Below are positions 3,831-52,126 of a DNA stretch of 64,000 nucleotides, one piece after another. The translations under genes and the position numbers were made by a program. Each line of letters starts with the position of its first letter. The first letter of the stretch is position 1. The DNA is taken from the sequence record OM858838; one strand, given 5' to 3'. The stretch is from Shigella phage B2. Under the pieces are notes generated by a model, which worked only from the letters and a program-made list of their open reading frames with translations, did not search any database and was not told the DNA's origin.

Positions 3831-3853
3831 AGCCCCTTCGGGGCTTGCTTTGG
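3831..3853 (+). promoter_or_regulatory. TTC-triloop hairpin (agcccc-TTC-ggggct) followed by TGCTTTGG; candidate hairpin promoter or processing site
   Basis: 6-bp perfect stem, 3-nt loop, no T-run; same architecture recurs at 6112 and 52104. Confidence 0.4.
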
Positions 3854-3928
3854 AAAAAAGAAAGAGGAATTCATCCTCTTCAAATCAAACTGTAATTTTT
3901 AATCCCAATCTGAAAAGGTAAAAAAGAA

Positions 3929-5371
3929 ATGGCTAAGACTCTTGAGCAAGATGAAAAGAAAGTACACGTTGCTGAAATCGTTCGTCACGGCGAAAAACTG
4001 ATTGTGCCGGAAGGCATGTCTCTGAGCGATGTTATCGACCTCGCTAAACGTCGCATGAAGTTCGAAGAAGAAGAAGTTCTGGTACGTCGTACCTATAACG
4101 TATTCCCATGGGATGGTGCTCATGCTCTGATGCTGGCACTGACCGAACGTTATGGCTGGGCTGCTGCTGAAGCAACTCCTGGTTTCTTCGGCTCCAATCC
4201 TCCGCAAATGCTGGATGTGCAGGTCGGCTATGGCAAAACCAAAAAAGTTCCATGGGGACGTTTCTCTCTGCCACAGGTAGATGGTTTTGTTCAGTGTTCT
4301 GCACAGAAGAAAGATGGTCGTATCAGCTTCGAACTGGTCGGTAAAGTCCTGCGTAAAGACGAAAAGACTATCGAACTGCTGTTTGATACCGTTGAGCAAA
4401 CTCTGCGTACCAACTCCATTTACATGGGTCAGGCTATCAAAATCCGTTTCCGCGATAACGATGGCGACCTGCTGGAAATGCCGGAACCAGAATTCATGGA
4501 CCTGCGTGGTATCAGCCGTGATTCTCTGGTTTATTCTGACGATGTTCAGAACCTGATTGAAACCAACCTGTTTACGCCGATTGAGCGTGTTGCTGACTGT
4601 ATCGCTAACGATATGCCGGTTAAACGTGGCGTTCTGCTGGGTGGACCATACGGTACTGGTAAAACTATGGCTGCAACTGTTGCTGCTGCTCTGGCTACCA
4701 ACGTGGGTGTTACCTACGTATACGTACCGCGTTCTGATGAACTGTCTGATGCAATTCAGTTTGCTAAGCAGTACAGCGATAAAGCCTGCGTAATCTTCTG
4801 TGAAGATATCGACCGTGCCGTATCCGGTGAACGTAGCGTGAAGATGGACGATATCCTGAACATTCTGGATGGTATCGACACCAAAACTTCTCGCATCATC
4901 ACCGTTCTGACCACCAACCATCTGGAAAACATCAACCCAGCAATGCTGCGTCCGGGCCGTCTGGATGCAATCATCGATGTTACTGCGCCTGATGCGAAAG
5001 CTGTTGAAAAACTGGTTCGCCTGTATGGTCGTGACACCATCGCTGCTGATGCAGACCTGACTCTGGTCGGTGAAGCTCTGGCTGGTACTATTCCTGCGGT
5101 AATCGCGGAAGTTGTTAAGCGTGCGAAACTGCACCAGCTTCAGTATCAAGAAGCAGGTACTCTGATTGAAGAAATCAGCGGTCAAGCTCTGCTGGATTCC
5201 GCTCTGACTATTCAGGCACAGCGTAAGCTGCTGGAAGAACAGTCCAAGCCGAAAGTTAAAGAACCAACCTTCAACGAAACTATCGCTGCTGCTGTTGCTC
5301 CGGCAATTGCTGAAGCTGTAGGTAAAGTTGCTGGTCAGGTTTCTGAACTGCACGAACGTATCGTCGGCTAA
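3929..5371 (+). CDS. classic-clade AAA+ ATPase, codon-optimised (highly expressed)
   Basis: Walker A GGPYGTGKT, Walker B VIFCEDID, second region of homology with RPGRLD; strong host-like optimal codon usage (CTG, CGT, GGT, AAA) distinct from neighbours. Confidence 0.85.
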   Translation: MAKTLEQDEKKVHVAEIVRHGEKLIVPEGMSLSDVIDLAKRRMKFEEEEVLVRRTYNVFPWDGAHALMLALTERYGWAAAEATPGFFGSNPPQMLDVQVGYGKTKKVPWGRFSLPQVDGFVQCSAQKKDGRISFELVGKVLRKDEKTIELLFDTVEQTLRTNSIYMGQAIKIRFRDNDGDLLEMPEPEFMDLRGISRDSLVYSDDVQNLIETNLFTPIERVADCIANDMPVKRGVLLGGPYGTGKTMAATVAAALATNVGVTYVYVPRSDELSDAIQFAKQYSDKACVIFCEDIDRAVSGERSVKMDDILNILDGIDTKTSRIITVLTTNHLENINPAMLRPGRLDAIIDVTAPDAKAVEKLVRLYGRDTIAADADLTLVGEALAGTIPAVIAEVVKRAKLHQLQYQEAGTLIEEISGQALLDSALTIQAQRKLLEEQSKPKVKEPTFNETIAAAVAPAIAEAVGKVAGQVSELHERIVG

Positions 5372-5434
5372 CCGCCAGTAGTACTTGGATAGCCCTTCAA
5401 TGAGGGGCTATTCCAGTTATCACTGGAGGTAATC

Positions 5435-6112
5435 ATGAAGAATCTTTACCAGAAGATTGATGGAAGCCAATACAACCGAATCTTCGTTGTAGGAGATTTA
5501 CATGGTTGCTTTGATGAATTCCAAAAAGAGATGTGGGCTGTTCAGTTTAATGCTGAAACAGACTTAATCATCTCTGTAGGTGATTTAATTGACCGTGGTT
5601 CACAGAATGTGAATTGCTTACGTCTGTTAAATGAACCTTGGTTTAAAGCTGTTCTGGGTAATCATGAAGTAATGGCACTCAATGCCTTATCTTCTGAACC
5701 TTCTTCTGAAGAAGGGGATTTAGCATATTACAATTGGTTCCGTAATGGAGGCATTTGGATTATGGATATTCCTGAAGAACAGAAACCAGAAGTATTAGAA
5801 TTATTTACTCAGGTAGCAGAACTGCCTGGTATCATTGAAGTCTCAGTAGGTGACAAGACTATTGTTATCTGCCATGCAGACTACCCTTCAAATCAGTATC
5901 AATTCGATAAACCAGTTGATGAGGAAACTCTTATCTGGGGTAGAGAGCGTATAGCTCAAAACCAAAATGGAGAAGGTACTGTCATTCAAGGTGCTGACGA
6001 ATTCTACTTCGGTCACACACCTGCCAAAGACCCTATGCAATTTCATAACCAACATTACATTGATACCGGAGCAGTATTCGGTGGTCGATTAACATTGGTT
6101 CAAATCAAATAA
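5435..6112 (+). CDS. PPP-family Ser/Thr protein phosphatase (metallophosphoesterase)
   Basis: GDLHG, GDLIDRG and GNHE signature motifs in canonical order; GGAGG SD. Confidence 0.85.
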   Translation: MKNLYQKIDGSQYNRIFVVGDLHGCFDEFQKEMWAVQFNAETDLIISVGDLIDRGSQNVNCLRLLNEPWFKAVLGNHEVMALNALSSEPSSEEGDLAYYNWFRNGGIWIMDIPEEQKPEVLELFTQVAELPGIIEVSVGDKTIVICHADYPSNQYQFDKPVDEETLIWGRERIAQNQNGEGTVIQGADEFYFGHTPAKDPMQFHNQHYIDTGAVFGGRLTLVQIK

Positions 6113-6134
6113 CTGCCTTCGGCAGTTGCTTTGG
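6112..6134 (+). promoter_or_regulatory. TTC-triloop hairpin (actgcc-TTC-ggcagt) followed by TGCTTTGG
   Basis: 6-bp stem, 3-nt loop, overlaps stop codon of phosphatase gene; identical downstream octamer to hairpin at 3831. Confidence 0.4.
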
Positions 6135-6164
6135 TTACTCTTCACATCTGCATAGGTGCTCAAT

Positions 6165-6470
6165 ATGAAAATCCAAAAATTCGGTACTATCAATTTCACT
6201 GACTCCCTCAACTTGCCAATATTCTCGGGGTTCACTTTTAGTATTGAGAGTGAATCTGAACAGAGTATGACTCAAGATAAAAAGCTTAAAACTTTAATAA
6301 TGGTAACGGCTATCCGTGACCACTTAAGTAAAGTAGTTAAGTTTATTGAGGAAGATATCAGTAAAGCTTCTCTAAGAGATTCTGGGGACTTTTCTACTCC
6401 TGTAGGTAAAAGTACTAAGTCACCTGAAGAAATCGTCTCAGAGAGCCTCTCACGAATCATGGCTAAGTAG
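6165..6470 (+). CDS. hypothetical protein
   Basis: ORF with AGGTG SD; ATG at 6165 preferred over GTG at 6156. Confidence 0.5.
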   Translation: MKIQKFGTINFTDSLNLPIFSGFTFSIESESEQSMTQDKKLKTLIMVTAIRDHLSKVVKFIEEDISKASLRDSGDFSTPVGKSTKSPEEIVSESLSRIMAK

Positions 6471-6498
6471 TATTGAGCCTCTTTGGTTAAGGAGGCGT

Positions 6499-6759
6499 AT
6501 GTCTGAATCCCCAAATGCTACATATCGTGGAAACATGATGTGTATCAACTTTAGTTATGACTTTAAAATAGTCCTCCCTATTGAAGATGGTAAAGCCTTA
6601 CTTGAATTATTGAGTAAGGCTGAAATCTACAGGGAAGAATATAATAAAGACCCTTTCATTGAGCCAATGGATAAATCTTTAGATATCAAATTCATTGCTC
6701 GGAGTAAGTATGAGCTTCTTAAGCTCGCATTTTTAAGGACTGAGAATGAGTCTAACTAG
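6499..6759 (+). CDS. hypothetical protein
   Basis: AAGGAGG SD 4 nt upstream of ATG. Confidence 0.5.
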   Translation: MSESPNATYRGNMMCINFSYDFKIVLPIEDGKALLELLSKAEIYREEYNKDPFIEPMDKSLDIKFIARSKYELLKLAFLRTENESN

Positions 6760-7990
6760 TTGCCAAGAACAAGCAGCTAAGCAGTTCTTATCGTTTCTTT
6801 GTACTCCAATGAAACATATGGTTATTTCTGGTCCACCTGGAGTAGGCAAGACATTCATGCTTAATCACATGATTGATATGTTGCCTAGTACTAGACGTAT
6901 CACAAATATTATGGGTGTTGACCCAATTAATAATATTGCTGTTACTGCTACAACCAATAAGGCTGCTGAAGTATTACAGGAAAGGTTCTCTAATAGAACT
7001 GTATCCACAATCCATTCAACGTTAGGTCTAACAGTAAGGGATGATTACCGAACAGGTAAAACATTCACTGCTAAGGGCAAAAACTTTATACCTCTATCCG
7101 ACACTCTCATCCTTATGGATGAATCCTCAATGGCGGATACTCAACTACTGAAGTTAATCGATGAAGGTACTGCTAAAAACTGTAAGATAGTTTTTATTGG
7201 TGACCATTGTCAGTTGGCTCCAGTCTCAGAAACAATGAGTCCAGTTTTCAACTCGGGCTACATTACTTCATATCTAAATACCCAAATGCGAACTAACAAT
7301 AGTCCAGCATTAACTCTACTTAATGACCAGTTACGTCAGACAGTAGAAACGGGTGTCTTCAGACCAATCATTCCTGTTCCCGGTGTTATCGATTTCGTTA
7401 ATGACGATGAGATGCGCCGACTGATGAATGCAAATTTCATTTTGCAGGAAACTCCCGGTCATAAAATCCTAGCTTATACAAATAATGGGGTTCAAGAGTA
7501 CAACTCGTACATACGAACCAAGAAGCATTTACCTCCAACTTTGATGGTAGGTGATGCTGTCGTATCAAATAACAGCATTGAAACTGCTGGTTCTCGTACC
7601 ATTATCGAAAAGGTATACCGAGTACATTCAATATCTGGTGTACATCATAATGATGGTATTCCTTACTACATGGTAGATATTGGAGTAGGTGGTTTAGTTA
7701 AACAACCTGTTAACTATAGCCAGTTACAACAAGCAATCAGAGAAGCAGCCAATAATAAAGATTGGGTTGAGTACTTTCGTTTAAAGAATGAATTTGCTGA
7801 CTTACGGTTTGCATATGCATCTACTGTACATAAGTCTCAAGGCTCAACATTTGATACTGTCTATATCGATTTAGGTGACTTGTGCATCTGCAAGGATATG
7901 GAACAATTAGCTCGTATGCTTTATGTAGCTGCCAGTCGTGCTACTACTCGTGTTGTGTTCTATGGTAATCCTCCTCACTTCATGAGGTGA
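6746..7990 (+). CDS. Dda/RecD-like superfamily 1 DNA helicase
   Basis: Walker A GPPGVGKT, Walker B LILMDESSM, motif TVHKSQGSTFD and C-terminal AASRATTR typical of RecD/Dda helicases. Confidence 0.8.
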   Translation: MSLTSCQEQAAKQFLSFLCTPMKHMVISGPPGVGKTFMLNHMIDMLPSTRRITNIMGVDPINNIAVTATTNKAAEVLQERFSNRTVSTIHSTLGLTVRDDYRTGKTFTAKGKNFIPLSDTLILMDESSMADTQLLKLIDEGTAKNCKIVFIGDHCQLAPVSETMSPVFNSGYITSYLNTQMRTNNSPALTLLNDQLRQTVETGVFRPIIPVPGVIDFVNDDEMRRLMNANFILQETPGHKILAYTNNGVQEYNSYIRTKKHLPPTLMVGDAVVSNNSIETAGSRTIIEKVYRVHSISGVHHNDGIPYYMVDIGVGGLVKQPVNYSQLQQAIREAANNKDWVEYFRLKNEFADLRFAYASTVHKSQGSTFDTVYIDLGDLCICKDMEQLARMLYVAASRATTRVVFYGNPPHFMR

Positions 7991-7992
7991 TT

Positions 7993-8466
7993 ATGTCCAC
8001 ACTCACTACTCCAACAAGTAGGCATAAAGAAGATATTCTGGATTGGTTACTTAACTTAATTACAGATAACTTCTGTACTTTTGTACATAATAAAGAATTG
8101 CAATTATGCATTGATAACAATGCTCCTGATGGATTCATGTTTAATAATATGACATTCAGAGGAACTGACAGAATGGTTTTCACATGTAAACCAGAACTGG
8201 AAGAAACTGCAAAAGAAGTATGGGAATTGAAGCAAAAAGTTAAGAGAGACTGGATGTATCTCGAAAACTACTTCAAAAGAGTATTGGCTCGTATGACTAA
8301 CTATGGTCAGTTGTACTGCTATGTACCTCCCTTTATGCATAACAAGCTTAATGAAATCTTTGTTCATGCTTTCATAGGCGAGAAAGAACCAATCAGAGGT
8401 ATGCCTCCTGATGAGTCTATTCATAAACTTATCTCGTTCTATGTGATGACTAAATTGGTTATCTAA
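7993..8466 (+). CDS. hypothetical protein
   Basis: ORF; GAGG SD before ATG at 7993. Confidence 0.5.
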   Translation: MSTLTTPTSRHKEDILDWLLNLITDNFCTFVHNKELQLCIDNNAPDGFMFNNMTFRGTDRMVFTCKPELEETAKEVWELKQKVKRDWMYLENYFKRVLARMTNYGQLYCYVPPFMHNKLNEIFVHAFIGEKEPIRGMPPDESIHKLISFYVMTKLVI

Positions 8467-8711
8467 TGGATATCGCATTTGTAGTATCAAAAGTAATTGT
8501 TACAGAGTACACACTGCTTAGGCAGTGGTGGCCTGAACAGTTACGCGAGTCTAGATATGTCGATACAGATATGACTAGAACCTACTTCTTAGATAGACTT
8601 CCCTCTCCTGAATTGTATGAGCTTATGGATAGGCTTAATGCAGAAGGAAGAACCTATCGATTTATGGACTTAAGAGGAGTGGACTCAGAAGATGCGTCAC
8701 ATAATCTTTGA
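8466..8711 (+). CDS. hypothetical protein
   Basis: ORF with ATG overlapping upstream stop. Confidence 0.45.
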   Translation: MDIAFVVSKVIVTEYTLLRQWWPEQLRESRYVDTDMTRTYFLDRLPSPELYELMDRLNAEGRTYRFMDLRGVDSEDASHNL

Positions 8712-10347
8712 ACAGAACCAAAGATATCCAATAGCAATTCTCATCAAACCACAGCAACTAAAGAAGCGTGAGTTACAGGAAGCGTATATCGACCCTACTG
8801 GAATCAAGCCAAAGCAATTCATTGCATTTGACCTTGAGTACAATGGTAAGAAAGCTCCTGTATCTATGCAGAAAGACTATCTTAAAGACCTGTTACCAGA
8901 GCTATGCAACTTAAGAACAGAGTATGTTCTATGTTGCGATAGTGCTTACTTCAAGACTCTAACCAAGCAAACCAAAGCAGAACCTCATTATGGTTATGTA
9001 TTGCCTTGTGCTATTGCTGGTTTCGAGCACTTGAATATTATCTTTTGTCCTAACTATGCTCAGATTTTCTATGACCCATCAGTTCAGGATAAAGTCGATT
9101 TAGCACTTAAAGCATTGGTAGATAAAGTGAATGGGCAATACCAAGAGATTGGTAAGGATATTATTCATTCTGCTTATTACCCTTCAACAGTTGAAGACAT
9201 TGAAGCTTGGCTTGAATCTCTTCATCAATATCCAGTATTGGCGTCAGATATTGAGGCATTTAGCCTCAAATTCTATACAGCAGGTGTAGGTACTATTGGT
9301 TTTGCATGGGACCAACACAATGGAGGAGCATTCGCTGTTGATTACACGAATGAACCAGACAAGGCTAATAGGATAAGGCAGGCTCTTAAGAAGTTCTTTG
9401 AAACTTATAAAGGCAAACTGATTTGGCATAACGCTAGTTATGACTTAACAGTGCTTATCCATCAGCTTTGGATGAAAGGTCTAATAGACCAGAAAGGACT
9501 GCTTAAGGGGTTGCATATTATGTGTCGTGATTTTCACGATACTAAGATTGTAACTTATCTGGCTACAAACTCTTGTGCAGGTAATGAATTGGGACTGAAA
9601 GCTCAGGCTCATGAATTTGCTGGCAACTATGCACAAGAAGATATTAATGACATTACTAAGATTCCTCTTCCAGAGTTACTGGAATACAACTTAGTTGACT
9701 GTTTAAGCACTTGGTATGTTGCAGACAAACATGCAGATACTATGGTGCTGGATGAACAGTGGGAAATCTATAATGACCTAATGTTACCTTCGCTGAAGAA
9801 TATTATTCAGATGCAATTAACTGGTATGCCTATTGATATGGCAGAAGTTAAGAAGGTTAAAATAGAGATGACTAAAGAGCGTGATGGATATCTCAATGCT
9901 ATCCGTTCATTTGCTGTAGTAGATTTACTAGTTCATAACTTGCGTGAACAACATGTAGCTACTCGTAATGCTGCCCTTAAAACCAAGCAAATTACAATGT
10001 CTGATGATGAGACATTAAAAATAGAGTTTAATCCAAACTCTAACCCTCAGATGCAAGAACTCTTGTATGAGATTATGGGATTACCTGTAATCGATTATAC
10101 CGAATCTAAACAACCTGCTACTGGAGCAGATACTTTAGATAAGTTAATTAACCATACAACAGATGACCGTCAGAAAAAGATACTCGAATGCCTTATTAAG
10201 TATTCTAAGGTAGAGAAGATTTTATCTGCATTCATCCCTGCATTTGAAGAAGCACCTTTAGCCGAAGATGGTAACTACTATCTGTTCGGTAGCTATAACT
10301 TAGGTGGTACTGTATCCGGTCGTTTGAGTTCATCAAAGCCTAAATAA
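8692..10347 (+). CDS. DNA polymerase I family, N-terminal part (3'-5' exonuclease and palm start), ends inside the conserved GRLSS..PN.QNIP motif
   Basis: exonuclease-like DIEAFSLKFY region; C-terminus …TVSGRLSSSKPK matches the first half of the Pol I motif …TGRLSS.DPNLQNIP. Confidence 0.85.
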   Translation: MRHIIFEQNQRYPIAILIKPQQLKKRELQEAYIDPTGIKPKQFIAFDLEYNGKKAPVSMQKDYLKDLLPELCNLRTEYVLCCDSAYFKTLTKQTKAEPHYGYVLPCAIAGFEHLNIIFCPNYAQIFYDPSVQDKVDLALKALVDKVNGQYQEIGKDIIHSAYYPSTVEDIEAWLESLHQYPVLASDIEAFSLKFYTAGVGTIGFAWDQHNGGAFAVDYTNEPDKANRIRQALKKFFETYKGKLIWHNASYDLTVLIHQLWMKGLIDQKGLLKGLHIMCRDFHDTKIVTYLATNSCAGNELGLKAQAHEFAGNYAQEDINDITKIPLPELLEYNLVDCLSTWYVADKHADTMVLDEQWEIYNDLMLPSLKNIIQMQLTGMPIDMAEVKKVKIEMTKERDGYLNAIRSFAVVDLLVHNLREQHVATRNAALKTKQITMSDDETLKIEFNPNSNPQMQELLYEIMGLPVIDYTESKQPATGADTLDKLINHTTDDRQKKILECLIKYSKVEKILSAFIPAFEEAPLAEDGNYYLFGSYNLGGTVSGRLSSSKPK

Positions 10348-11053
10348 ATTGGGCTGTTTAAACTTCGTGAATTCGGGGAAAATCCAGAACGGACAATCCC
10401 GAGCCAAGTCAACCAATCATGTCTTAAGAGGCAGAATGGACACTAAAAAATTAGAATATTTATATGAAAACACTTCTTTATCTCAGAAAGAGATTGCTAA
10501 GTGTTTAGGATTAAAATCTGCTAGGGCTGTTCAAAAATATTGTTACAGACACTATACAAGTGCCTATCGTAAAGAAAGGCATTCCAAGCTATTAGCTAAA
10601 GCTAAACTAGGAAGTTTAAACCCTATGTTTGGTAAATCTGGTTTATACCACCCCAGATATCTAGGAGTTGTCTCTGACAACAAAGGGTATTGGATGGTAT
10701 TAAAACCAGAGTGGTATACAGGGCGTAAAAGCAGTAAGCATGTATTTTTACATTCTGTAGTTGTATGTGAACATCTAGGATGGACAGAAATACCGAAAGG
10801 GTATGTAGTTCATCATTGTGATTTTGACCCATCAAATAATGATTTTGATAATTTAGTGGTGCTTACTGTAGCAGAACATATGAGCTTACATGCAGCATTG
10901 AAAGGTGTAACGACTATCTCGAAAGAGAGTACACTCAAGTGGGTGGAAGCGCGAAGGGCTGGTAACAGCCATGATATAGTCTGACCTGTATAGGAATATA
11001 CAGCAGCACTGAATAGTGCGAGTACAGCTTAACGAACTGTACTGAACGTAGTG
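10342..11053 (+). mobile_element. candidate group I intron carrying an HNH homing endonuclease ORF, inserted in the DNA polymerase gene
   Basis: insertion splits a single ultra-conserved motif; proposed 5' exon ends in T (10341), insertion ends in G (11053); joining 10341 to 11054 is in frame and restores SKPNMQQIP. Confidence 0.5.
10436..10984 (+). CDS. HNH homing endonuclease
   Basis: VVHHCDFDPSNNDFDNLVVLTVAEHMSLH HNH motif; GAGG SD before ATG 10436 (track ORF starts further upstream at non-ATG 10349). Confidence 0.8.
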   Translation: MDTKKLEYLYENTSLSQKEIAKCLGLKSARAVQKYCYRHYTSAYRKERHSKLLAKAKLGSLNPMFGKSGLYHPRYLGVVSDNKGYWMVLKPEWYTGRKSSKHVFLHSVVVCEHLGWTEIPKGYVVHHCDFDPSNNDFDNLVVLTVAEHMSLHAALKGVTTISKESTLKWVEARRAGNSHDIV

Positions 11054-11995
11054 AATATGCAACAAATCCCATCCTCTAAGAGTCCTTATGCCAAGCCTAT
11101 TAAGCGATGCTTTAAAGCTGGTAAAGGTTGGCTTCTTATTGGGTTAGACTTTGCATCTCTAGAGGACCGTATTTCAGCTCTGACAACCAAAGACCCCAAT
11201 AAACTTAAAGTTTATACTGATGGGTATGATGGTCATTCTCTCAGAGCATTCGCTTACTTTGGCGACCAAATGCCTGATATTCAGAATACAGTGGATAGTA
11301 TTAATAGTATTCAGGACTTATATAAGGACTTTAGACAAGAATCTAAAGCTCCTACTTTTGCACTTACCTATCAAGGTACTTATCACACATTGATGGCTAA
11401 CTGTGGCTTCCCAGAAGACAAAGCGAAAATGGTTGAAAAGAGGTATCACGAACTCTATTTCGTCTCTGACCAATGGGTAGACGCCAAGTTAGCACAAGCC
11501 AGCAAAGATGGTTATATCACTGCTGCATTCGGATTAAGAATCCGTACTCCATTACTCAAAAATGTTGTCTGGGGAATTAAACAAACACCATATGAAGCCA
11601 AAGCAGAAGGCAGAACTGCTGGTAATGCTTTAGGTCAGTCTTGGTGCTTGTTAAATAACCGAGCAGCAAATGAGTTTATGGAACGTGTATGGAATTCTCC
11701 TTATGCAGATGTAATCAAACCATGCGCTCAAATTCATGATGCTCAGTATTATCTGGTTCCAGATGATATTGATATTGTTCATTGGGTTAATGAGAACTTA
11801 GTTGAGTGTGTTCAATGGCAAGACCATCCCGATATCTATCACGAGGAAGTGAAGTTAGGAGGAGATTTAAGTGTCTTTTACCCATCATGGGCTAATGATA
11901 TCTCCTTAAAGAATGGAGCTTCTAGAGAAGAAATCTTAGATACATGTGAAGTTGGATTGGATAAGTATCTTCACCCGGAGAAATATAAAAAATGA
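11051..11995 (+). CDS. DNA polymerase I family, C-terminal part (fingers/palm with motifs A and C)
   Basis: begins NMQQIP (second half of the split motif), DFASLEDR motif-A-like, QIHDAQYY motif-C-like. Confidence 0.85.
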   Translation: MNMQQIPSSKSPYAKPIKRCFKAGKGWLLIGLDFASLEDRISALTTKDPNKLKVYTDGYDGHSLRAFAYFGDQMPDIQNTVDSINSIQDLYKDFRQESKAPTFALTYQGTYHTLMANCGFPEDKAKMVEKRYHELYFVSDQWVDAKLAQASKDGYITAAFGLRIRTPLLKNVVWGIKQTPYEAKAEGRTAGNALGQSWCLLNNRAANEFMERVWNSPYADVIKPCAQIHDAQYYLVPDDIDIVHWVNENLVECVQWQDHPDIYHEEVKLGGDLSVFYPSWANDISLKNGASREEILDTCEVGLDKYLHPEKYKK

Positions 11996-12369
11996 GTATC
12001 TTACAGTCCCCTATTGATAATGCTCCTGCAATCTTACAGGAAGCACATCGTTGTATTGCTGACAGAGCACATGAACGTGACCAAGAATCTGAACGTTCAA
12101 TGGAACGCACTGTAGCAGCCTTCAATGCAATGTATAAGCTCAACCTGACAGAAGAACAGGGTTGGATGTTTATGGTCTTCCTGAAAGCTGCAAGAGCTTC
12201 AGGAGGCTCATTCAAGCTTGATGACTATGTTGATGGCTCTGCTTACTTTGCGTTAGCTGGTGAAGCTGCTATGCCACATCCTCAATTAGAACTGTCACTT
12301 TCTGAACCAGAAATGACTAGAAAACATGCAGAACATTTCGGAATTCCATTAGGAAAGGAACAAATCTAA
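11992..12369 (+). CDS. hypothetical protein
   Basis: ORF with ATGA overlap to polymerase stop. Confidence 0.5.
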   Translation: MSILQSPIDNAPAILQEAHRCIADRAHERDQESERSMERTVAAFNAMYKLNLTEEQGWMFMVFLKAARASGGSFKLDDYVDGSAYFALAGEAAMPHPQLELSLSEPEMTRKHAEHFGIPLGKEQI

Positions 12370-13133
12370 TGCAAGTTAAGTATGTAGACCATATGGGTAA
12401 TGACCAACGTATTGTTGATGTTGCTCGTCAGTCATTTGCTAAGACAGATGCCACTGTACGTACTGAAGCTCAGAACCAAGGATTGATTCGTTATTTAGCT
12501 GAAGGTATTTCTTCTAAAGAAAGAGATTCAATTATCTTATCTATCCTGAAAGGTGTAAGTAATGAATTCTATTTTGATACTGAAGAAGATGCCGAGAAAG
12601 CTGCTGAAGAATTGTATAGAGATATTCGTCACCAAGCAGTGCATTGGACTCCATTTGCTCATACTGCAATAACCCTTCAGATGCAGGCTCCTATTCCTAT
12701 TCGTACCCAAGCTTTTAAACATAAGCAGGGTTTAGTAGAGAATGAGGAATCTCGTCGATATATCAGTACAACGCCTGAAATATTTGTACCTGAATTTCGT
12801 TTAAGACCTGAAGGTTCAATCAAGCAAGGTAGTGCTGGTATTCATCCTGCTAATGATGATTGGAAACATACATACATTCAGATGACACAGGATGCTGTGT
12901 TTACTTATGAACGTATGATTGCAGAAGGTATTGCTCCTGAACAAGCCAGATTCATCTTACCTCAAGGTGTAGAAGTTAACTGGACTTGGACTGGCAACTT
13001 ATTAGCTTTTGCTAACTTCTATAACAAAAGAAGTGATGCCCATGCTCAACAAGAAATCCAAGATTTAGCTGAGATGGTTCGTGCAATCATTGAACCACTA
13101 TTTCCAATATCTTGGAAAGCTCTTACTCAATAA
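12369..13133 (+). CDS. hypothetical protein
   Basis: ORF, coupled start. Confidence 0.5.
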   Translation: MQVKYVDHMGNDQRIVDVARQSFAKTDATVRTEAQNQGLIRYLAEGISSKERDSIILSILKGVSNEFYFDTEEDAEKAAEELYRDIRHQAVHWTPFAHTAITLQMQAPIPIRTQAFKHKQGLVENEESRRYISTTPEIFVPEFRLRPEGSIKQGSAGIHPANDDWKHTYIQMTQDAVFTYERMIAEGIAPEQARFILPQGVEVNWTWTGNLLAFANFYNKRSDAHAQQEIQDLAEMVRAIIEPLFPISWKALTQ

Positions 13134-13143
13134 GGATTAACTT

Positions 13144-13773
13144 ATGTCTGTACGTTTAACTAATGCTGCTCGTGATGAAATCGTAAAAGCTGCTGTAAAT
13201 AAATCTGGTTTTCCTAAACGTATCGAAGAAGCACGTACTGCTTTAGAAGATATTAAAATGGAATGCTGGATTGCAGCATTTGGTGGATTAAAAGCTTATC
13301 GTCGTTTATGTGACCGCTTTGAAACCATTGAAGAAAAGATTAGTGAACTTCGCAAATCAGGTGTGAATGTACCAAGTCTTGGTTCAGGGCATACTTGGAG
13401 CAATTCCAAACTGAACCTCGCAGGTATGCAAGTTCCATCTCCCGATATGAATTGGGTATCGGATAAGTTTAAAGAGTTACGTGTCATTTATATGTATGAC
13501 AGTAAACCTACTTTAACTGCGGATAACCCATTGGTTCAGAAATTCCTTGATGCTGAAAAAGCATTAGAAGATTTGAAATCATCTCGTCAACAAATCAAAG
13601 ACAACGTTCAAGCAGTAGTTTACTCAGTATCTACTACCAAACGTTTGATTGAAGTATGGCCTGAATCTGCTGAACTGATTCCAAGAGAAGTTGAAGTAGT
13701 TCGTGCAGGTTTACCTGCTATTAACTTTGAAAGTCTGAACGCATCAATTGGTATTCCATCCGAGAAGAAATAA
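13144..13773 (+). CDS. hypothetical protein
   Basis: ORF with AAGGA SD. Confidence 0.5.
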   Translation: MSVRLTNAARDEIVKAAVNKSGFPKRIEEARTALEDIKMECWIAAFGGLKAYRRLCDRFETIEEKISELRKSGVNVPSLGSGHTWSNSKLNLAGMQVPSPDMNWVSDKFKELRVIYMYDSKPTLTADNPLVQKFLDAEKALEDLKSSRQQIKDNVQAVVYSVSTTKRLIEVWPESAELIPREVEVVRAGLPAINFESLNASIGIPSEKK

Positions 13774-13775
13774 TT

Positions 13776-14762
13776 ATGAAGCTAACCAATAATACTAACA
13801 TCGCTTTATCGATGGCTGTCTGGTTAGCGGCTGATGATTATGACTACGTTGAGAAACCAAACTATATCTCTGCCACCAGCTTACTTAAGAGCGTTCGTCA
13901 ATTAGTCTTGATGAAGCGTCTCACAGGCTCTCTGGAGGCTTCTGCTGATGTATCTGGACGAATCTCTAACCGTATGGGTTCAGCCTTCCACGATGCGATT
14001 GAGAGAGCTTGGAAGGAGAAATACAAACAGTCCTTAACTGACCTTGGTTATCCAAAAAGAGTCATTGAAGCTGTGCGTATTAATCCAACAGAGGAAGAAC
14101 TCAATGATGATGTGATTCCTGTCTGGTTAGAACAGAGAGTTGAGAAGGATTTCCGAGGATGGACTATCGGAGGTAAGTTCGACATGGTTATGGAGTACAG
14201 ACTGAGAGATGTTAAATCTACCAGTGTGTTCACATACCAGAACAAATCCAATGATGAAAAGTTTCGTATGCAGGGAAGTATTTACCGTTGGCTTAACCCA
14301 GAGAAAATCAAGCATGACCACATGTACATTGATTATCTCTTCGTAGATTGGTCTGCCAATCAAGCCAAAGGTAATAAAGATTACCCTCAACAGAAGATTT
14401 TAGAATATCCATTGCAGTTGAAATCTGTGCATGAAACGGAGCAGTATGTTGCCTCCAAGCTAACTGCTTTGGAAAGGTACATGGATACCCCTGAACCAGA
14501 ACTTCCTGAGTGTACAGAAGAAGACTTATGGCGCTCTGACCCTGTCTATAAGTATTACAAAAACCCTGCCTCTACAGGCCGTAGTACAAAGAACTTTGAT
14601 AACTTACACGATGCTAATCTGAGGTTTGCTGAAGATGGTGCAGTAGGTATTGTTGTCACTGTTCCGGGTGAAGTTAAAGCGTGTAAATACTGTCCAGTAT
14701 TTGCTATCTGTACTCAGAAAGATAAGTATTTGGCTTCAGGGGAACTTAACGTTTCAGATTGA
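13776..14762 (+). CDS. putative PD-(D/E)xK nuclease with C-terminal Cx(n)CxxCx5C iron-sulfur cluster (Cas4/RecB-nuclease-like)
   Basis: C-terminal Cys cluster PEC…ACKYCPVFAIC; central acidic/lysine motifs; location in replication module. Confidence 0.5.
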   Translation: MKLTNNTNIALSMAVWLAADDYDYVEKPNYISATSLLKSVRQLVLMKRLTGSLEASADVSGRISNRMGSAFHDAIERAWKEKYKQSLTDLGYPKRVIEAVRINPTEEELNDDVIPVWLEQRVEKDFRGWTIGGKFDMVMEYRLRDVKSTSVFTYQNKSNDEKFRMQGSIYRWLNPEKIKHDHMYIDYLFVDWSANQAKGNKDYPQQKILEYPLQLKSVHETEQYVASKLTALERYMDTPEPELPECTEEDLWRSDPVYKYYKNPASTGRSTKNFDNLHDANLRFAEDGAVGIVVTVPGEVKACKYCPVFAICTQKDKYLASGELNVSD

Positions 14763-14770
14763 GGAACCCA

Positions 14771-16933
14771 ATGTTTGACTTATCATCTGCCCAATATCAT
14801 CCAATCTCTGAACAGATTGTAGATGTGTTAACAAAGAAAACTCTAAACAGTAACCGATTGTTCTTCAGAGTTCAGGTTAGTTACTTTTTAGCTAAGATGG
14901 CATCCAGTATGAGATGTACTCTGGATACCTTAGATAGAGGAAAGATTCCTGTTAATGTATATGCCTTGAACTTAGCTCCGTCAGGCTCAGGCAAAGGGCA
15001 TTCCACTAACATCATTGAAGGCCAGTTCTTGAACCAGTTTAAGAACACATTCCTTCAAGATACTTTCCCCTATATAGCTCAACAGAATCTTGTTGATATA
15101 GCTGCTAAAAGAGCCAATAAAAATGGAACAGACCCTGCTGATGAGTTAGTGAAACTGGAGAAGGAATTTGCTTCTACAGGTGCATTAGCATTCTCATTTG
15201 ATAGTGGTACTGTGCCTGCTCTCAAGCAGTTACGTCACAAGCTGTTACTGGCTAATGCAGGTGCTGCATCCTTCGAGTGTGATGAGTTAGGTAAGAACCT
15301 TATCGCTAACATGGACTTGTTAACAGCTTTTTTAGAGTTGTATGACCAAGGACTTATCAAACAGAAGTTAACCAAGAATACAGCAGACTCCCAACGTGCT
15401 GAGGAATTGGAGGGTAAAACTCCAACCAATATGCTCCTGTTTGGTACTCCAAGTAGTTTGCTGAATGGCGGTAAGGAAGAAGACGAATTCTATGCATTAC
15501 TGGAAACAGGATATGCTAGACGTTGTTTGTTTGGTTATTCTCGTAAAGAGGATTTCCAACAAGAAATGTCTCCAGAACAAGTCTTCGATATGCTGACTGA
15601 CTCTACATCCAACTCAACCATTGCTCAGTTATCCCAGCACTTTGGTATGTTGGCTGATGCCATAAAGTACAATCAGCAAATCATGGTTAACAGGGATGTG
15701 AGTATCAAACTCATTGCCTACAAACTCCATTGTGAACAGATAGCTGACAAGCTGCCTGACCATGAGGAGATTCGTAAAGCTGAATTACGTCATAGATATT
15801 TCAAAGCACTGAAGCTTGCAGGTGTGTATGCATTTGTGGATGAAACTCCTGAAGTAACTGAAGCCCAGCTTTTATCTGCAATCAAACTCGTAGAAGAGTC
15901 TGGTGAAGCATTCAATAGAATTCTCAGCCGTGAGAAGAACTATGTGAAGTTAGCCAATTATATTGCAGAAGTAGGTAAGGAAGTTACCCACGTAGATTTG
16001 GTAGAGGATTTACCATTCTATAAAGGTAGCAATGCGCAGAAGCAAGAGCTAATGAACTTAGCTATCGCATATGGCTACAAGCACCACATCATCATCAAGA
16101 AAACATTTGTTGATGGCATTGAGTTCTTTAAGGGTGAGGCTCTTAAGCCAACAGACTTAAGTAAACTCATTGCTTCTTATAGTGGGCATGTAGCTTATAA
16201 CTATCTCTCTGAACCAATCTCCTTTAGTAATCTTCAGGCTTTATGCCAGATGGATGATATGCATTGGATTAATCATGCATTGATTAAAGGTGCTGATGGA
16301 GATGGGCATAGAGATGGTTCAAACATTCTGCCGGGCTTTAACGTTATCGTCATCGATGTAGATGAAGGAACATCATTAGATGAAGTTAGAGTATTGATGA
16401 AAGATTATACATATTTCATTCATACAACTAAACGTCATCAAACAGAAGGATATGGCGATAGATTCAGGCTTATCATGCCTATCAATTATCATCTTAAACT
16501 TGATGAAAATGAATTCAGAGAGTTTATGAATAACGTCTATGAATGGCTTCCATTTAAAGTCGATGAACAAACTAGTCAACGTTGTCGTAAGTGGGCAACA
16601 CATCAAGGAATCACATTCTCCAATGAAGGAGAGATTCTAGATGCTTTAGCTTTCATTCCGAAAACAAGTAAGAATGATGAGTTGAAGAAGACTATGGTTG
16701 ATTTAGGTAATTTAGATAATCTTGAACGTTGGTTTGCTCAGCGAATGGGTAACGGAAATCGCAACAATCAACTGCTGAAATTTGCTATGATGTTGGCAGA
16801 TACTGGATTGGATTATCAAGGAATCTTGGATAAGGTTCTTGGCTTCAATGCCAAACTGGATAGCGGACTTCCAGAGATTGAAATTCACAGTACTATCATG
16901 CGCAGCGTTAGCAAGAAACTTTCCGAGAAGTAA
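14771..16933 (+). CDS. putative primase-like replication protein with N-terminal P-loop domain
   Basis: P-loop APSGSGKGHS; C-terminal IDVDEG and downstream His motifs resembling archaeo-eukaryotic primase motifs; GAGG SD before ATG 14771. Confidence 0.5.
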   Translation: MFDLSSAQYHPISEQIVDVLTKKTLNSNRLFFRVQVSYFLAKMASSMRCTLDTLDRGKIPVNVYALNLAPSGSGKGHSTNIIEGQFLNQFKNTFLQDTFPYIAQQNLVDIAAKRANKNGTDPADELVKLEKEFASTGALAFSFDSGTVPALKQLRHKLLLANAGAASFECDELGKNLIANMDLLTAFLELYDQGLIKQKLTKNTADSQRAEELEGKTPTNMLLFGTPSSLLNGGKEEDEFYALLETGYARRCLFGYSRKEDFQQEMSPEQVFDMLTDSTSNSTIAQLSQHFGMLADAIKYNQQIMVNRDVSIKLIAYKLHCEQIADKLPDHEEIRKAELRHRYFKALKLAGVYAFVDETPEVTEAQLLSAIKLVEESGEAFNRILSREKNYVKLANYIAEVGKEVTHVDLVEDLPFYKGSNAQKQELMNLAIAYGYKHHIIIKKTFVDGIEFFKGEALKPTDLSKLIASYSGHVAYNYLSEPISFSNLQALCQMDDMHWINHALIKGADGDGHRDGSNILPGFNVIVIDVDEGTSLDEVRVLMKDYTYFIHTTKRHQTEGYGDRFRLIMPINYHLKLDENEFREFMNNVYEWLPFKVDEQTSQRCRKWATHQGITFSNEGEILDALAFIPKTSKNDELKKTMVDLGNLDNLERWFAQRMGNGNRNNQLLKFAMMLADTGLDYQGILDKVLGFNAKLDSGLPEIEIHSTIMRSVSKKLSEK

Positions 16934-16952
16934 TCCCCAAGCAGGAGATAAA

Positions 16953-17681
16953 ATGTCAGAACCAATTAAAGACCTAGTCTTAATTGCAGGTGCATCATCA
17001 TCTGGTAAATCAGCTTCATTGATGAATCTGGAAGACCATCCGGGAGTGATGTATCTAAACTGTGAATCTGGTAAACGTCTGCCATTTCCAAACAAGTTTG
17101 ATAAGTATGTAATCACTGACCCACTACAAGTGTATGAAGCATTTGATGCTGCTGAGACTATGCCTCACATTCATACCATTGTAGTTGATTCAATTACATT
17201 CCTGATGGATATGTTTGAATCCCTTTATGTTATTGGTTCAGCCAATACCATGAAAGGTTGGGCTGATTACAATCAGTTCTTTAAGAATCTGATGCAGGTT
17301 AAGGTAGCCAAATCTACCAAACGAGTAATCTTTACTGCTCATACTCTGTCTCAGTTAAATGAGAATGAGATGATTGTAGAAACCAAAGTTCCAGTGAAAG
17401 GTGCACTGAAGAACCAAGGTATTGAAGCTTACTTTACCTGTATTGTTTATGCCAAGAAGATGCAGCTTAAGCATCTGAAGCCTTATGAGAATGACCTATT
17501 GGTTATTACTCCAGAGGAAGAAATCCTTGGCTATAAGCATGTCTTCCAAACTTGTATCACCAAAGATACTGTCCATGAACGTATTCGTTCTCCACGCTTT
17601 ATGTGGAAGATGAATGAAAGTTTCATCGATAACGATGTAACTAAAGTACTTGGTCGTATCAAAGAATTTTACGAAGAATAA
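16953..17681 (+). CDS. P-loop ATPase, possibly RecA/Sak4-like recombination protein
   Basis: Walker A GASSSGKS near N-terminus, VVDSITFL Walker-B-like; AGGAG SD before ATG 16953 (track ORF start 16839 overlaps upstream gene). Confidence 0.5.
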   Translation: MSEPIKDLVLIAGASSSGKSASLMNLEDHPGVMYLNCESGKRLPFPNKFDKYVITDPLQVYEAFDAAETMPHIHTIVVDSITFLMDMFESLYVIGSANTMKGWADYNQFFKNLMQVKVAKSTKRVIFTAHTLSQLNENEMIVETKVPVKGALKNQGIEAYFTCIVYAKKMQLKHLKPYENDLLVITPEEEILGYKHVFQTCITKDTVHERIRSPRFMWKMNESFIDNDVTKVLGRIKEFYEE

Positions 17682-17690
17682 GGAACAAAT

Positions 17691-18434: not shown

Positions 18435-18442
18435 GGATTTGT

Positions 18443-49639: not shown

Positions 49640-51265
49640 TTAAACCAGATAACTATCTATTCCATTGGATTGGGTTGGTTCAGGCATGTCCCATATACCA
49701 TCATCCTGTACACCTCCTGTAGAGCCTTGTGAGGGCTTCCATACTTTAAGACACCCTAACATACTGATGGTATCAATAAAGTCGTCATGCTTGCTCTTAA
49801 AGCCCTCTACAGTAGCTAACTGAAGCTCATCCATAGCTTCTAACATAATCTTCTCTTCTTTGAGTTCTTCAGGGAAATACATCTTACCTGCTTTGAACCA
49901 AGGAAGAACTGAGTTGAATCTCACCATCTTATTACTATTAGGTCGAATACCCGGTCTACTGTTATTGCCATCAGAGGCAAAATTGAACCAAATATTACGA
50001 GTCATCATCTCATTCTGAAGTAGCGGGATGAATCCACCTTGCTGACCTGTAACTTCAATGCCTACAGATTGAGGTTGGTACTCTACAACTAGTCTAAATA
50101 GGTCATCAAAGTTCTTATCCATAAGCTGGCGTCTACAAATACCATCAACCCAGAACCAATCACCATTAGAGTTGATGGCCCATACAGAAATAACTGAATA
50201 GTCAGCAGACTGTTTCTCAGAAGTAGCAAAGTCAGTAGTGATATAGAAATTAAAATGACCTCTATTCAGCAGAAGAGACTTACGCTTATACCATTGGATA
50301 TCAGAATCCATGACAAGCCTCTCTTCATCAGAGGTAATTCGTAGCATCAATTCCTGATTGAATGCAGCAACCTGTCCAGTTGATACAGCAAGGTCGTATT
50401 GCCCTTTAACGAAGTCATATGAGAAGCGGTCTTCCCAAGCTCCTACAAATTCTTCACGAGAACATGGGAATTTCTCACAAATAGGGAATACGTTTACATA
50501 CCAACCACCTGATTCTACTGCTTCATAAAGAATATCGTTCTTATTAAAGGGTGTTCCACTGAAAACAATCTTTCTACGTACAGGGTCGAGAGCATAATCG
50601 ACACCTTTGTACACAGTATCCTTGATTGCCTGCATAGTTGACTTAGATTTAGCATCATCATCACTAACTAAGTCATCCAATACAGCTAAAACAGGACGTT
50701 TACCAAAGATTTTAGTACCACGAAGACCTGTCTTAGCACCAAACATACGAACACCTAGCTTATGCCCATCAGCATTAGTGAATTCTAGGTATGCATCAGT
50801 GAATTTGGCTTCAGGAATGTACTTCTGAAGGAATTCAGAGTTGTTATAACGGTATTCGATATTCTTTCTAAGTGATTTTACCCCGTTCTCCATTGAGTCA
50901 GAGACATAAATCATACCTTCGATTTCACCAAATCCATCAATCTCCCCATATAAGGCAATATACAGAACCAGATACTCACCAAATAAGGTAGTTTTAGCCA
51001 TACCACGAGAACAAAGATTGGCTAATCGAGTACGTTTACCTGCTAACTCATCAAGCATTTTAAGATGAACAACAGGAGTAAGGTTAGATTCACCTGCTTC
51101 ACCATTAACCATCTTGATAAAGTTCACATAGTTAATTGCGAATACAGAAGGAACATAGTTACCGTCATTGAGAGTGCTGTAATCAACAGTATTCAGCCAC
51201 TCTACAACTGACTTTTTAACCATTGGGTCTTCTTTAATCATCGACACGTTCAGATTCTCCATCAA
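49640..51265 (-). CDS. terminase large subunit
   Basis: Walker-A-like SRGMAKTT, Walker-B-like PVLAVLDDLVSDDD, C-terminal acidic nuclease-like region; 541 aa. Confidence 0.7.
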   Translation of the reverse strand: MMENLNVSMIKEDPMVKKSVVEWLNTVDYSTLNDGNYVPSVFAINYVNFIKMVNGEAGESNLTPVVHLKMLDELAGKRTRLANLCSRGMAKTTLFGEYLVLYIALYGEIDGFGEIEGMIYVSDSMENGVKSLRKNIEYRYNNSEFLQKYIPEAKFTDAYLEFTNADGHKLGVRMFGAKTGLRGTKIFGKRPVLAVLDDLVSDDDAKSKSTMQAIKDTVYKGVDYALDPVRRKIVFSGTPFNKNDILYEAVESGGWYVNVFPICEKFPCSREEFVGAWEDRFSYDFVKGQYDLAVSTGQVAAFNQELMLRITSDEERLVMDSDIQWYKRKSLLLNRGHFNFYITTDFATSEKQSADYSVISVWAINSNGDWFWVDGICRRQLMDKNFDDLFRLVVEYQPQSVGIEVTGQQGGFIPLLQNEMMTRNIWFNFASDGNNSRPGIRPNSNKMVRFNSVLPWFKAGKMYFPEELKEEKIMLEAMDELQLATVEGFKSKHDDFIDTISMLGCLKVWKPSQGSTGGVQDDGIWDMPEPTQSNGIDSYLV

Positions 51266-51929
51266 TTACTAACTTGGTATGAGCTACTTCTTTAGCTGAA
51301 TAGACTCCGCCTTCAATCAGTTGTCGCTGCTTCGCAGCTAGCTGTGAGGTTAATTCCCTCAGTTCACTAATTACACCACCTTCCTGCAATCCAACATTAA
51401 GTTCAATCTTATTGGCTTCAGGACGTTTGAGATGATTAAGTAATGAGTTAGCTGCTTCACACTTAACCTTCTCACTTTTAGCATTAAGCATTAAATCTGC
51501 TTGAACGTTAATAGCTTTCTGAAAGATATCAGCATTAAGAACATGAGTTGGAACCAAAGTCTGTTCATAGATAAGGTTAACTAACTTACCTTTGTTGTAT
51601 GCAGATACATAACAATGAATATCTTTAGTGGAAGTACCGGAGTTCAAGAAGTTTTGATATCGGTCTGGGAAAGTTTTTATATAAGCTTCAAAGTTGGTAT
51701 GTCCCATTAGTTTAAAACTGACATACTTAACTGCGGATAAGTAGTCTTCAATCTTAAACTTACCATCCTTCATTACATGGGTATAAGACATTAAGTTATC
51801 TCTCAATACTTCACCCATAATGGGGTCAGAGAGAATCTTATTAATCTTATCCATTAAATCCTGATTAACACTGCCTTTATGATTTTGAGGCATTACAGCT
51901 TTAAACTGTTCTACTGATAACTGAGTCAT
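51234..51929 (-). CDS. possible terminase small subunit
   Basis: immediately upstream of and overlapping large terminase gene; no motif proof. Confidence 0.4.
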   Translation of the reverse strand: MTQLSVEQFKAVMPQNHKGSVNQDLMDKINKILSDPIMGEVLRDNLMSYTHVMKDGKFKIEDYLSAVKYVSFKLMGHTNFEAYIKTFPDRYQNFLNSGTSTKDIHCYVSAYNKGKLVNLIYEQTLVPTHVLNADIFQKAINVQADLMLNAKSEKVKCEAANSLLNHLKRPEANKIELNVGLQEGGVISELRELTSQLAAKQRQLIEGGVYSAKEVAHTKLVIDGESERVDD

Positions 51930-52103
51930 AGTTACTCCGAAGGGGTTTACAAATAGATTATCAGTACTATATAGTACTTTTCACAGAAAGTAGAAGATTC
52001 TTAAGTGAGAGGTGTATTAGAACGTAACGGACTCATTATCCAATCTACGTTCAGTTGTTAAGATTGCAGTCTTAATAACATTTGATGATACATCTCTCTC
52101 TTA

Positions 52104-52126
52104 AGCACCTTCGGTGCTCTCTTTGG
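52104..52126 (+). promoter_or_regulatory. TTC-triloop hairpin (agcacc-TTC-ggtgct) followed by CTCTTTGG, upstream of tRNA cluster
   Basis: 6-bp stem, 3-nt loop; third copy of hairpin plus TTTGG architecture. Confidence 0.4.

Follow-up and report, generated by a model that had tools for sequence, protein, structure and literature searches.

Covarying triloop hairpins beyond the early region of an N4-like enterobacterial phage: candidate DNA-hairpin promoters

The window analysed here, a stretch of 64,000 nucleotides (nt) from Shigella phage B2 (sequence record OM858838), belongs to an N4-like phage that we place in the family Schitoviridae, subfamily Humphriesvirinae, genus Ithacavirus (98.7% identity to Salmonella phage vB_SenP_UTK0001 and 97.8% to FSL SP-058 in the 6 kb compared). 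It carries three hairpins with a TTC triloop (hereafter class-2 hairpins, at sites 1 to 3), each followed directly by an octamer ending in GG, and it is their function that we address. Orthologous regions were compared in Pollock (KM236242), Pylas, KpCHEMY26, FSL SP-058 and several IMG/VR contigs. The elements and the genes beside them, in window positions, are:

3831..3845, + strand: class-2 hairpin 1, AGCCCC-TTC-GGGGCT (template-strand DNA fold -6.8 kcal/mol)
3846..3853, + strand: octamer of site 1, TGCTTTGG (spacer TGCTTT, then GG; G3852 at +14 from loop centre 3838)
3862..3880, + strand: second hairpin, AAGAGGA-attca-TCCTCTT, 10 nt past the predicted start 3852, kept in Pollock
3929..5371, + strand: AAA+ ATPase gene, the first gene after hairpin 1 (PF00004, E = 3e-16; FtsH-like annotation in relatives)
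5435..6112, + strand: Ser/Thr metallophosphatase gene (PF00149, E = 1.7e-15), its stop codon overlapping the base of hairpin 2
6112..6126, + strand: class-2 hairpin 2, ACTGCC-TTC-GGCAGT (DNA fold -6.2 kcal/mol, z = -4.4)
6127..6134, + strand: octamer of site 2, TGCTTTGG (spacer TGCTTT, then GG; G6133 at +14)
52088..52103, + strand: conserved upstream box ATACATCTCTCTCTTA adjoining hairpin 3, kept in Pollock despite a deletion of ~58 nt further upstream
52104..52118, + strand: class-2 hairpin 3, AGCACC-TTC-GGTGCT
52119..52126, + strand: octamer of site 3, CTCTTTGG (spacer CTCTTT, then GG; G52125 at +14)
52135..53369, + strand: tRNA cluster (Asp, Ile, Ser, Asn, Arg, Thr, Leu), with hairpin 3 at its head

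A sequence-only reading of the window had reported the hairpins, their octamers and the genes flanking them (AAA+ gene, metallophosphatase and tRNA cluster at sites 1, 2 and 3, respectively), all of which we confirm. Its claim that the downstream signature differs from that of the early-region copies also holds: the latter (57389, 58219, 59484, 59537 and 62016) are followed by an RGTGGA-type sequence, and counted from the loop centre their GG is at +11/+12, whereas that of the class-2 sites is at +14/+15. The class-2 stems span 6-7 bp with 4-5 G:C pairs (hairpins 1 and 2 lengthen to 7 bp through the pairs A3830-T3846 and A6111-T6127, i.e. 3830-3846 and 6111-6127), the template-strand loop is GAA at all three sites, and the RNA folds of hairpins 1, 2 and 3 amount to -11.5, -9.7 and -7.9 kcal/mol. 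Each stem is preceded by a TAA (a true stop codon at sites 1 and 2 and at a fourth site described below, and at site 3 the end of a 6-codon frame only), whose A's double as basal A:T pairs of the stem.

The three hairpins are not a product of chance. The pattern TTC-N6-YKCTTTGG, counted without requiring a stem, has three matches in the window, all on the + strand (shuffle mean 0.15; 0 of 100 shuffles reach three), and perfect TTC-loop hairpins with stems of at least 5 bp number 13 against 1.5 expected (shuffle maximum 6, n = 200). Triloop hairpins of the C-TNC-G kind are confined almost wholly to one strand, with 18 (+) versus 1 (-) in the window and 18 versus 0 in Pollock. Reading CTTCGG as a UUCG tetraloop was ruled out, as 6-7 pairs form at all sites in the triloop register only. 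The Rfam 15 search of the window (gathering score) matched no family at the hairpins, the tRNAs being its sole matches. An 11-mer shared near sites 1 and 2 (TTCAAATCAAA, 3878-3888 and 6100-6110; coding sequence at site 2) was set aside as probably fortuitous, because a sequence of 64 kb should contain hundreds of repeated 11-mer pairs.

The hairpins are kept at syntenic places in three genera (Ithacavirus, Pollockvirus and Pylasvirus). Site 1 takes four forms, namely AAGCCCCttcGGGGCTT-gctttgg, the same stem followed by gcctcgg (Pollock), AAGCGCCtccGGCGCTT-gcctcgg (Pylas and KpCHEMY26) and AACCGCCtccGGCGGTT-gccttgg, with compensatory stem changes in the orthologues from Pollock, Pylas and IMG/VR contigs. 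Site 2 orthologues retain AACTGCC/GGCAGTT around TTC, TCC or TAC loops, and one clade has instead ACCACCttcGGTGGT-ttatttgc, with the doubly compensated stem ACCACC/GGTGGT. At site 3 the stem is identical in the three genera (spacers ctcttt, ttcttt or tttctt) and the box ATACATCT is conserved upstream of it; the sequence past GGAAA is wholly different between phages, and the first downstream gene differs as well. The fourth site lies in the part of the genome beyond the window, after the open reading frame (ORF) next to dUTPase (FSL SP-058 12903, Pollock 9208, Pylas 11632), and a fifth was found in Pollock and Pylas only.

In an alignment of 14 sequences, drawn from 4 sites and as many as 4 lineages, every pair of the 6-bp core is Watson-Crick (100%). 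The three stem pairs that vary do so by double substitutions only and none shows a G-T intermediate, the covariation score is 0.468 versus 0.165 in shuffles (0 of 500 reach 0.468), and the pairing is lost when the stem partner is slid. The basal A:T pair never varies, nor do the two C:G pairs next to the loop (CC/GG), loop positions T1 and C3, T(+12) and G(+14), the last being present in 14/14, as is G at non-template +3. Loop T and C, the CC/GG pairs, T(+12) and G(+14) are where a DNA-hairpin promoter would be expected to stay constant, and N4 vRNAP promoters depend on the same C:G-closed G-N-A loop in the template (PMC4496689). The alignment indicates that the hairpin is under selection. The octamer, which the sequence-only reading had taken for the conserved feature, fares differently: it is not the conserved unit, because its T's freely give way to C in orthologues (variants TGCCTCGG, TGCCTTGG, TTCTTTGG, TTTCTTGG and TTATTTGC), leaving T(+12) and G(+14) alone fixed. 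Judged by the criterion of that reading itself, conservation in related phages, the octamer is partly refuted, and what stands in relatives is the module of hairpin plus G.

Hairpins of related build were encountered elsewhere. In Littlefix, a Pseudomonas phage, two tandem 6-bp C-TCC-G hairpins with G at +14 lie upstream of the orthologous AAA+ gene. A scan of IMG/VR for CCTTCGGNNNTNNCTTTGG recovered the full hairpin in 1 of the 120 matches listed (a Pylas-like contig), the others being mostly chance, and is no guide to distribution. Within ORFs of the window, two 5-bp C-TTC-G hairpins (2434-2446 and 2665-2677) are both kept in Pylas and KpCHEMY26, the second with a compensatory change (TTCAC/GTGAA versus CTCAC/GTGAG) and GG at +13/+14; internal promoters or mere coding conservation could account for them. 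Another in-ORF hairpin, beyond the window and with a 6-bp C-TNC-G structure, is shared across genera with a compensatory stem change and a loop change: it pairs as ACTGCC/GGCAGT at FSL SP-058 10590-10604 and as GCTGCC/GGCAGC at Pylas 9683-9697 (loops ttc and tac). The + strand hairpin GCTGC-ttc-GCAGC (window 51326-51338, also Pollock 63541) is antisense within the leftward gp69-like ORF, and could be an antisense start site or a chance occurrence.

Landmark hairpins place window 57389 at FSL SP-058 position 28, and the window is thus a permuted view of the genome. Some 8 kb of the genome are not in it, where the relatives have the start of the middle region and the genes for the RNAPII subunits (gp15-like and gp16-like); a gp2-like protein is also encoded by the relatives. 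The layout of the window and its canonical terminators are:

1 to ~18.7 kb, + strand: rightward middle (replication) genes
~18.7 to 51.9 kb: late genes, mostly leftward, the virion RNA polymerase (vRNAP) gene first
52.1 to 57.3 kb: tRNA and small-gene cluster, rightward, right genome end
57.4 to 64 kb: early region, left genome end
2178-2204 (hairpin 2178-2196): canonical intrinsic terminator, TGCCCTC-cttgt-GAGGGCA then TCTTTTTTGG, after the gp25-like gene
18694-18713: bidirectional canonical terminator, AAGCCCTC-atta-GAGGGCTT, where middle and late genes converge

Sites 1 and 2 lie between the gp25-like and gp37-like genes and site 3 near the right genome end, and co-oriented genes follow every site. 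Hairpin 1 directly follows the TAA stop codon (3828-3830) of a 44-codon ORF, and the ORF after site 2 begins at ATG 6165, so that a transcript starting at the predicted G6133 would have a leader of 32 nt. Hairpin 3 lies in intergenic DNA from which the leftward gp69-like/terminase operon (start codon 51929) and the rightward tRNA cluster diverge, with no co-oriented gene upstream of it; it ends 17 nt before tRNA-Asp (52135), the predicted start G52125 lies 10 nt before that gene, and the first tRNA is found 10-17 nt past the G in the window and FSL SP-058. At the convergent middle/late junction of the window there is no class-2 hairpin; the canonical T-run terminator listed above stands there, and one is also annotated at this junction in Pollock.

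Some side observations concern these neighbourhoods. Homologues 68% identical to the AAA+ protein occur on IMG/VR contigs (44-46 kb, GC-rich) that are not N4-like in appearance, which suggests horizontal gene exchange. In the tRNA region, a tRNA-like sequence at 52216-52288 (Rfam, 37.7 bits) was not reported by ARAGORN, and the tRNA-Ser at 52795-52880, called by ARAGORN, is missing from the Rfam gathering list. Four tRNA genes of Pollock (KM236242 64673-65002) are on the - strand in GenBank, whereas ARAGORN puts them on the strand of the hairpin and the rightward cluster, so that the GenBank strand is probably an error. The divergent region before the tRNAs also holds a perfect 14-bp palindrome (GTACTATATAGTAC, 51964-51977; kept in Pollock, partly in Pylas), which could be a shared -10 element of divergent host-type promoters or an operator, because it reads TATAGT on both strands. 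Over window positions 1-20000, sigma-70-like matches are depleted (25 versus 55.3 +/- 8.4 in shuffles), as would fit transcription of the middle region by phage polymerases together with selection against host promoters.

The architecture of the class-2 sites is that of promoters mapped in phage LUZ7. There, ONT-cappable-seq defined middle promoters of a 'GC-rich hairpin' type, in which the stem has at least 6 bp and the loop 3-4 nt, and transcription starts at a G ~15 bp downstream (PMC9163698). We took the promoter set from Table S2 of bioRxiv 10.1101/2022.03.18.484859 together with the LUZ7 genome:

PE7 (early): GCGTTCtccGAACGC-tccatt[G], start = G at +14
PE8 (early): the PE7 hairpin, then tttcat[G], start = G at +14
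PM2 (middle): GCCCCCtccGGGGGC-ttgaat[G], start = G at +14, confirmed by primer extension
PM3 (middle): GCCGCTtccAGCGGC-tctttc[G], start = G at +14

Set beside them, the window sites read AGCCCCttcGGGGCT-tgcttt[G]G, ACTGCCttcGGCAGT-tgcttt[G]G and AGCACCttcGGTGCT-ctcttt[G]G, and both groups share a 6-bp GC-rich stem, a TNC triloop, a 6-nt pyrimidine- or T-rich spacer and a G at +14. The motif is a good predictor of promoters: in a rough test, all three of the GC-rich C-TNC-G hairpins of N4 (stem of at least 5 bp) proved to be its promoters P1-P3 and 6/7 of those in LUZ7 were associated with mapped start sites, 9/10 together. Middle promoters and vRNAP promoters, both among the options of the sequence-only reading, are the best supported of these, and the C-TNC-G signature, stem, loop, spacer and G+14 speak for a promoter of one kind or the other.

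We reason, at a probability of roughly 0.55, that the three elements are DNA-hairpin promoters of a phage single-subunit RNA polymerase, most likely RNAPII. In supercoiled DNA the inverted repeat would extrude, and the template strand would fold into a GC-rich stem of 6-7 bp with a G-N-A triloop closed by C:G, i.e. the very stable mini-hairpin that is recognised by N4 vRNAP. The polymerase would bind this hairpin and initiate 14 nt away from the loop centre, at the G past the 6-nt pyrimidine-rich spacer (predicted starts 3852, 6133 and 52125). Its likely identity is RNAPII, the middle-gene enzyme (a gp15/gp16-like heterodimer), which would be aided by the gp2-like single-strand-binding protein. 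Three transcription units are predicted: one with the AAA+ and phosphatase genes, one with the replication block beyond the phosphatase gene, and one with the rightward tRNA cluster. In the first of these, the hairpin at 3862..3880 would lie as a stem-loop close to the 5' end of the putative site 1 transcript; read on the - strand, its stem is followed by a T-run and looks terminator-like.

Several observations weigh against this interpretation, many of them being what one would expect from the main rival, a terminator role, alone or combined with a promoter role, which the sequence-only reading did not list. By itself such a role would make the hairpins terminators or 3'-end-forming RNA hairpins (for phage or host polymerase) that halt rightward transcription at gene-block boundaries, with no promoter activity, and we consider this unlikely. 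Sites 1 and 2 (and 4 in relatives) start at or within the upstream gene's stop codon and have a U-containing tail, the RNA hairpins of sites 1-3 are stable (-7.9 to -11.5 kcal/mol), the Pollock record labels the orthologues of sites 2 and 4 terminators, and site 2 passes a loose terminator scan. The hairpin of LUZ7 PM3, of the same type, is also terminator T41 (efficiency 0.54-0.68), the mapped 3' end (39374) adjoining the 5' end (39375), possibly by RNA cleavage; efficient early LUZ7 terminators likewise have short pyrimidine tails without long U-runs. Sites 4 and 5 stand in tandem with canonical terminators, a canonical hairpin and T-run following 5-6 nt past the G, which is unexpected for a promoter; the same promoter-then-hairpin layout, with low termination, occurs in LUZ7 (PE7 to T12, PM2 to T37). 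Upstream of site 3 a sigma-70-like candidate (TTTACA-18-TATAGT, 51946-51975, 10/12 matches) could place hairpin 3 within a leader. Further, N4, which also has a gp2 cofactor, uses AT-rich non-hairpin RNAPII promoters and has no such hairpins in its middle region; the +14 architecture is common to early (PE7, PE8) and middle (PM2, PM3) promoters of LUZ7 and does not identify the polymerase; and the middle start sites behind the LUZ7 precedent number four, with a 3' end falling together with one of them.

We nevertheless favour promoter function. The loop is limited to a C:G-closed T-N-C, which suits a DNA mini-hairpin; no meaning of such a restriction is known for RNA terminators. In the same genomes, canonical terminators have varied loops of 4-7 nt, long T-runs (at least 5 T) and G-T wobble pairs. 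The G at +14 is invariant while the T-tract is lost to C in orthologues (TGCCTCGG or TGCCTTGG): the class-2 tail has four T's in 8 nt, site 1 orthologues read GCCTCGG, and in a U-tract test (at least 5 T in 8) only site 2 passes, and that solely with a G-T-extended stem, sites 1 and 3 failing. Site 3, having no co-oriented gene upstream, stands directly before the tRNA genes in three genera. The convergent middle/late junction employs a canonical terminator and no class-2 hairpin. Three of the four comparable LUZ7 hairpins (PE7, PE8 and PM2) have no mapped 3' end, and mapped PE7 and PM2 also have a second hairpin downstream. The class-2 sites do resemble intrinsic terminators, T41 included, in a GC-rich hairpin right after a stop codon and a U-containing tail; such terminators end transcription units, however, and one of the window sites (3) does not.

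A secondary, leaky terminator role beside the promoter role is a real possibility, since the same sequence, transcribed from upstream, would form an RNA hairpin with a short U-rich tail. Carried further, one hairpin might do two jobs: the RNA would stop or pause an incoming polymerase ~6 nt past the stem, and the extruded template DNA, its extrusion perhaps favoured by negative supercoiling behind the passing enzyme, would recruit a polymerase restarting at the next nucleotide. The adjacent T41 3' end and PM3 5' end of LUZ7 are what such a model predicts, and we regard it as a doubtful extension. If it were true, hairpin-promoter recognition would not be peculiar to the injected vRNAP and would be a general organiser of rightward transcription across Schitoviridae, with the AT-rich N4 middle promoters as the exception.

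The same pair of LUZ7 ends is a classic cleavage signature, and RNA processing was another option of the sequence-only reading. An endonuclease would cut ~7 nt 3' of the hairpin, for example freeing a tRNA precursor; the upstream product would then finish in a 3' end shielded by the hairpin, and the downstream product would gain a new 5' end. The distance from site 3 to the first tRNA is 10-17 nt, and the sigma-70-like candidate upstream of the site could yield the precursor transcript. We find it highly improbable that the elements are processing or stability elements of this kind. Enrichment for 5'-triphosphate ends preceded the calling of the LUZ7 5' ends (PMC9163698), the C:G-closed T-N-C loops and purely Watson-Crick stems point to a structure at the DNA level, no Rfam family matches the hairpins, and RNase III in particular was ruled out, stems of 6-7 bp being too short for it.

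As for the polymerase, the elements could be promoters of the injected vRNAP and not of RNAPII, forming a second spacing class that would be used once that DNA has entered the cell. The N4 enzyme recognises hairpins of 5-7 bp whose 3-nt loop reads G-N-A on the template strand, with C:G as closing pair, and its start lies at a distance of 11 nt from the loop centre (PMC4496689); it measures the loop-to-start distance, needs template C at +1 and contacts template -8G (PMC4496689). Its promoters are:

N4 90-102, 557-573 and 4546-4562: vRNAP early promoters P1, P2 and P3

The C-TNC-G hairpin of the class-2 sites is that of P1-P3, and their T-rich spacer followed by GG is closer to N4 (GCTTC-TTTTGGA) than are the early copies of the window phage. 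The same 6-bp, +14 architecture is found in PE7 and PE8, which are classed as early in LUZ7, so vRNAP has to be taken seriously as an alternative, and middle timing could merely reflect later DNA entry. Yet the start would be at +14, 3 nt further from the loop than the +11 of N4 and of the early copies, and the base at +11 is T. Without exception the second stem pair is C:G (G at +3), at a position contacted by vRNAP where the early copies have mostly A or T and N4 has C, and the TAC loops of some orthologues give template GTA, a central pyrimidine where N4 vRNAP needs a purine (LUZ7 early promoters tolerate it). We favour RNAPII because the sites lie in the middle region and at the right end, and because the triloop middle promoters of LUZ7 also have G at +3; use by vRNAP appears rather unlikely to us.

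Middle promoters of N4-like phages are poorly defined, being AT-rich in N4 and reported as GC-rich hairpins for LUZ7 only. What is added here is an architecture conserved with covariation, in synteny, in three enterobacterial genera that carry the N4-type gp2 cofactor, by which a thinly supported and recently proposed promoter class is extended to phages with that cofactor. This suggests that hairpin promoters beyond the early region are widespread in Schitoviridae. The predicted starts (3852, 6133 and 52125) are precise to the nucleotide, and the key invariant positions (CC/GG closing pairs, T+12 and G+14) are defined; site 3 probably indicates how the tRNA cluster is expressed. A caution follows for automatic annotation, which labels some of these elements terminators.

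Among known systems, N4 offers two comparisons. Its vRNAP promoters P1-P3 resemble the window sites in a 5-7 bp stem, a C:G-closed 3-nt loop, a T-rich spacer ending in TGG and location on the strand of early and middle genes. They differ in the start (+11 versus the predicted +14), in non-template +3 (C in P1-P3, corresponding to template -8G, versus G in the class-2 sites) and in place: N4 has three GC-rich C-TNC-G hairpins in all, every one in the early region and none in the middle region, whereas sites 1-3 lie outside the left-end early region. The early copies of the window, with GG at +11/+12, follow the N4 vRNAP rule. The RNAPII middle promoters of N4 consist of an AT-rich minimal element from -7 to +2 without a hairpin (Abravaya and Rothman-Denes 1990, as reported in PMC4496689) and start preferentially at thymidine, according to the LUZ7 paper (PMC9163698). 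They share with the window sites the middle region, the rightward strand, a T/A-rich stretch just before the start and homologues of gp15, gp16 and gp2 in the lineage; the window sites differ in their conserved GC-rich hairpin and predicted start at G.

The likeness to LUZ7, where the middle stage yielded no more than four start sites (Putzeys et al. 2022, PMC9163698), extends to the surroundings. The hairpins of both phages are on the rightward strand only, PM2 sits at a divergent junction like site 3, and PM3 lies just past the primase stop codon and at a mapped 3' end, sites 1 and 2 likewise abutting stop codons. A second hairpin follows shortly downstream in PE7 (T12, efficiency 0.06-0.20), in PM2 (T37) and in site 1 (3862-3880). 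Among the early-class hairpins of the window, those at 59484-59500 and 59537-59551 are arranged in tandem, 53 nt apart and each followed by GGTGGA, shortly before the gp2-like gene to judge from the matching positions in FSL SP-058, as LUZ7 has tandem early promoters before its cofactor gene drc. Differences exist as well: LUZ7 belongs to Migulavirinae and infects Pseudomonas, and the window phage to Humphriesvirinae on Salmonella; the cofactor is Drc in LUZ7 and an N4 gp2-like protein in the window lineage; the loops are mostly TCC in LUZ7 and TTC in the window (TCC or TAC in orthologues), with unrelated stem sequences; and the start sites are measured in LUZ7 and predicted here. The existence of the elements, their non-random and strand-specific occurrence, covariation and invariant positions, and their architectural identity with mapped LUZ7 promoters are shown; promoter activity, the start nucleotide, the polymerase and any terminator activity we infer. 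The hairpin-promoter kind has already been described for N4 (early) and LUZ7 (early and middle), and the window sites would be best filed as its members in an enterobacterial subfamily.

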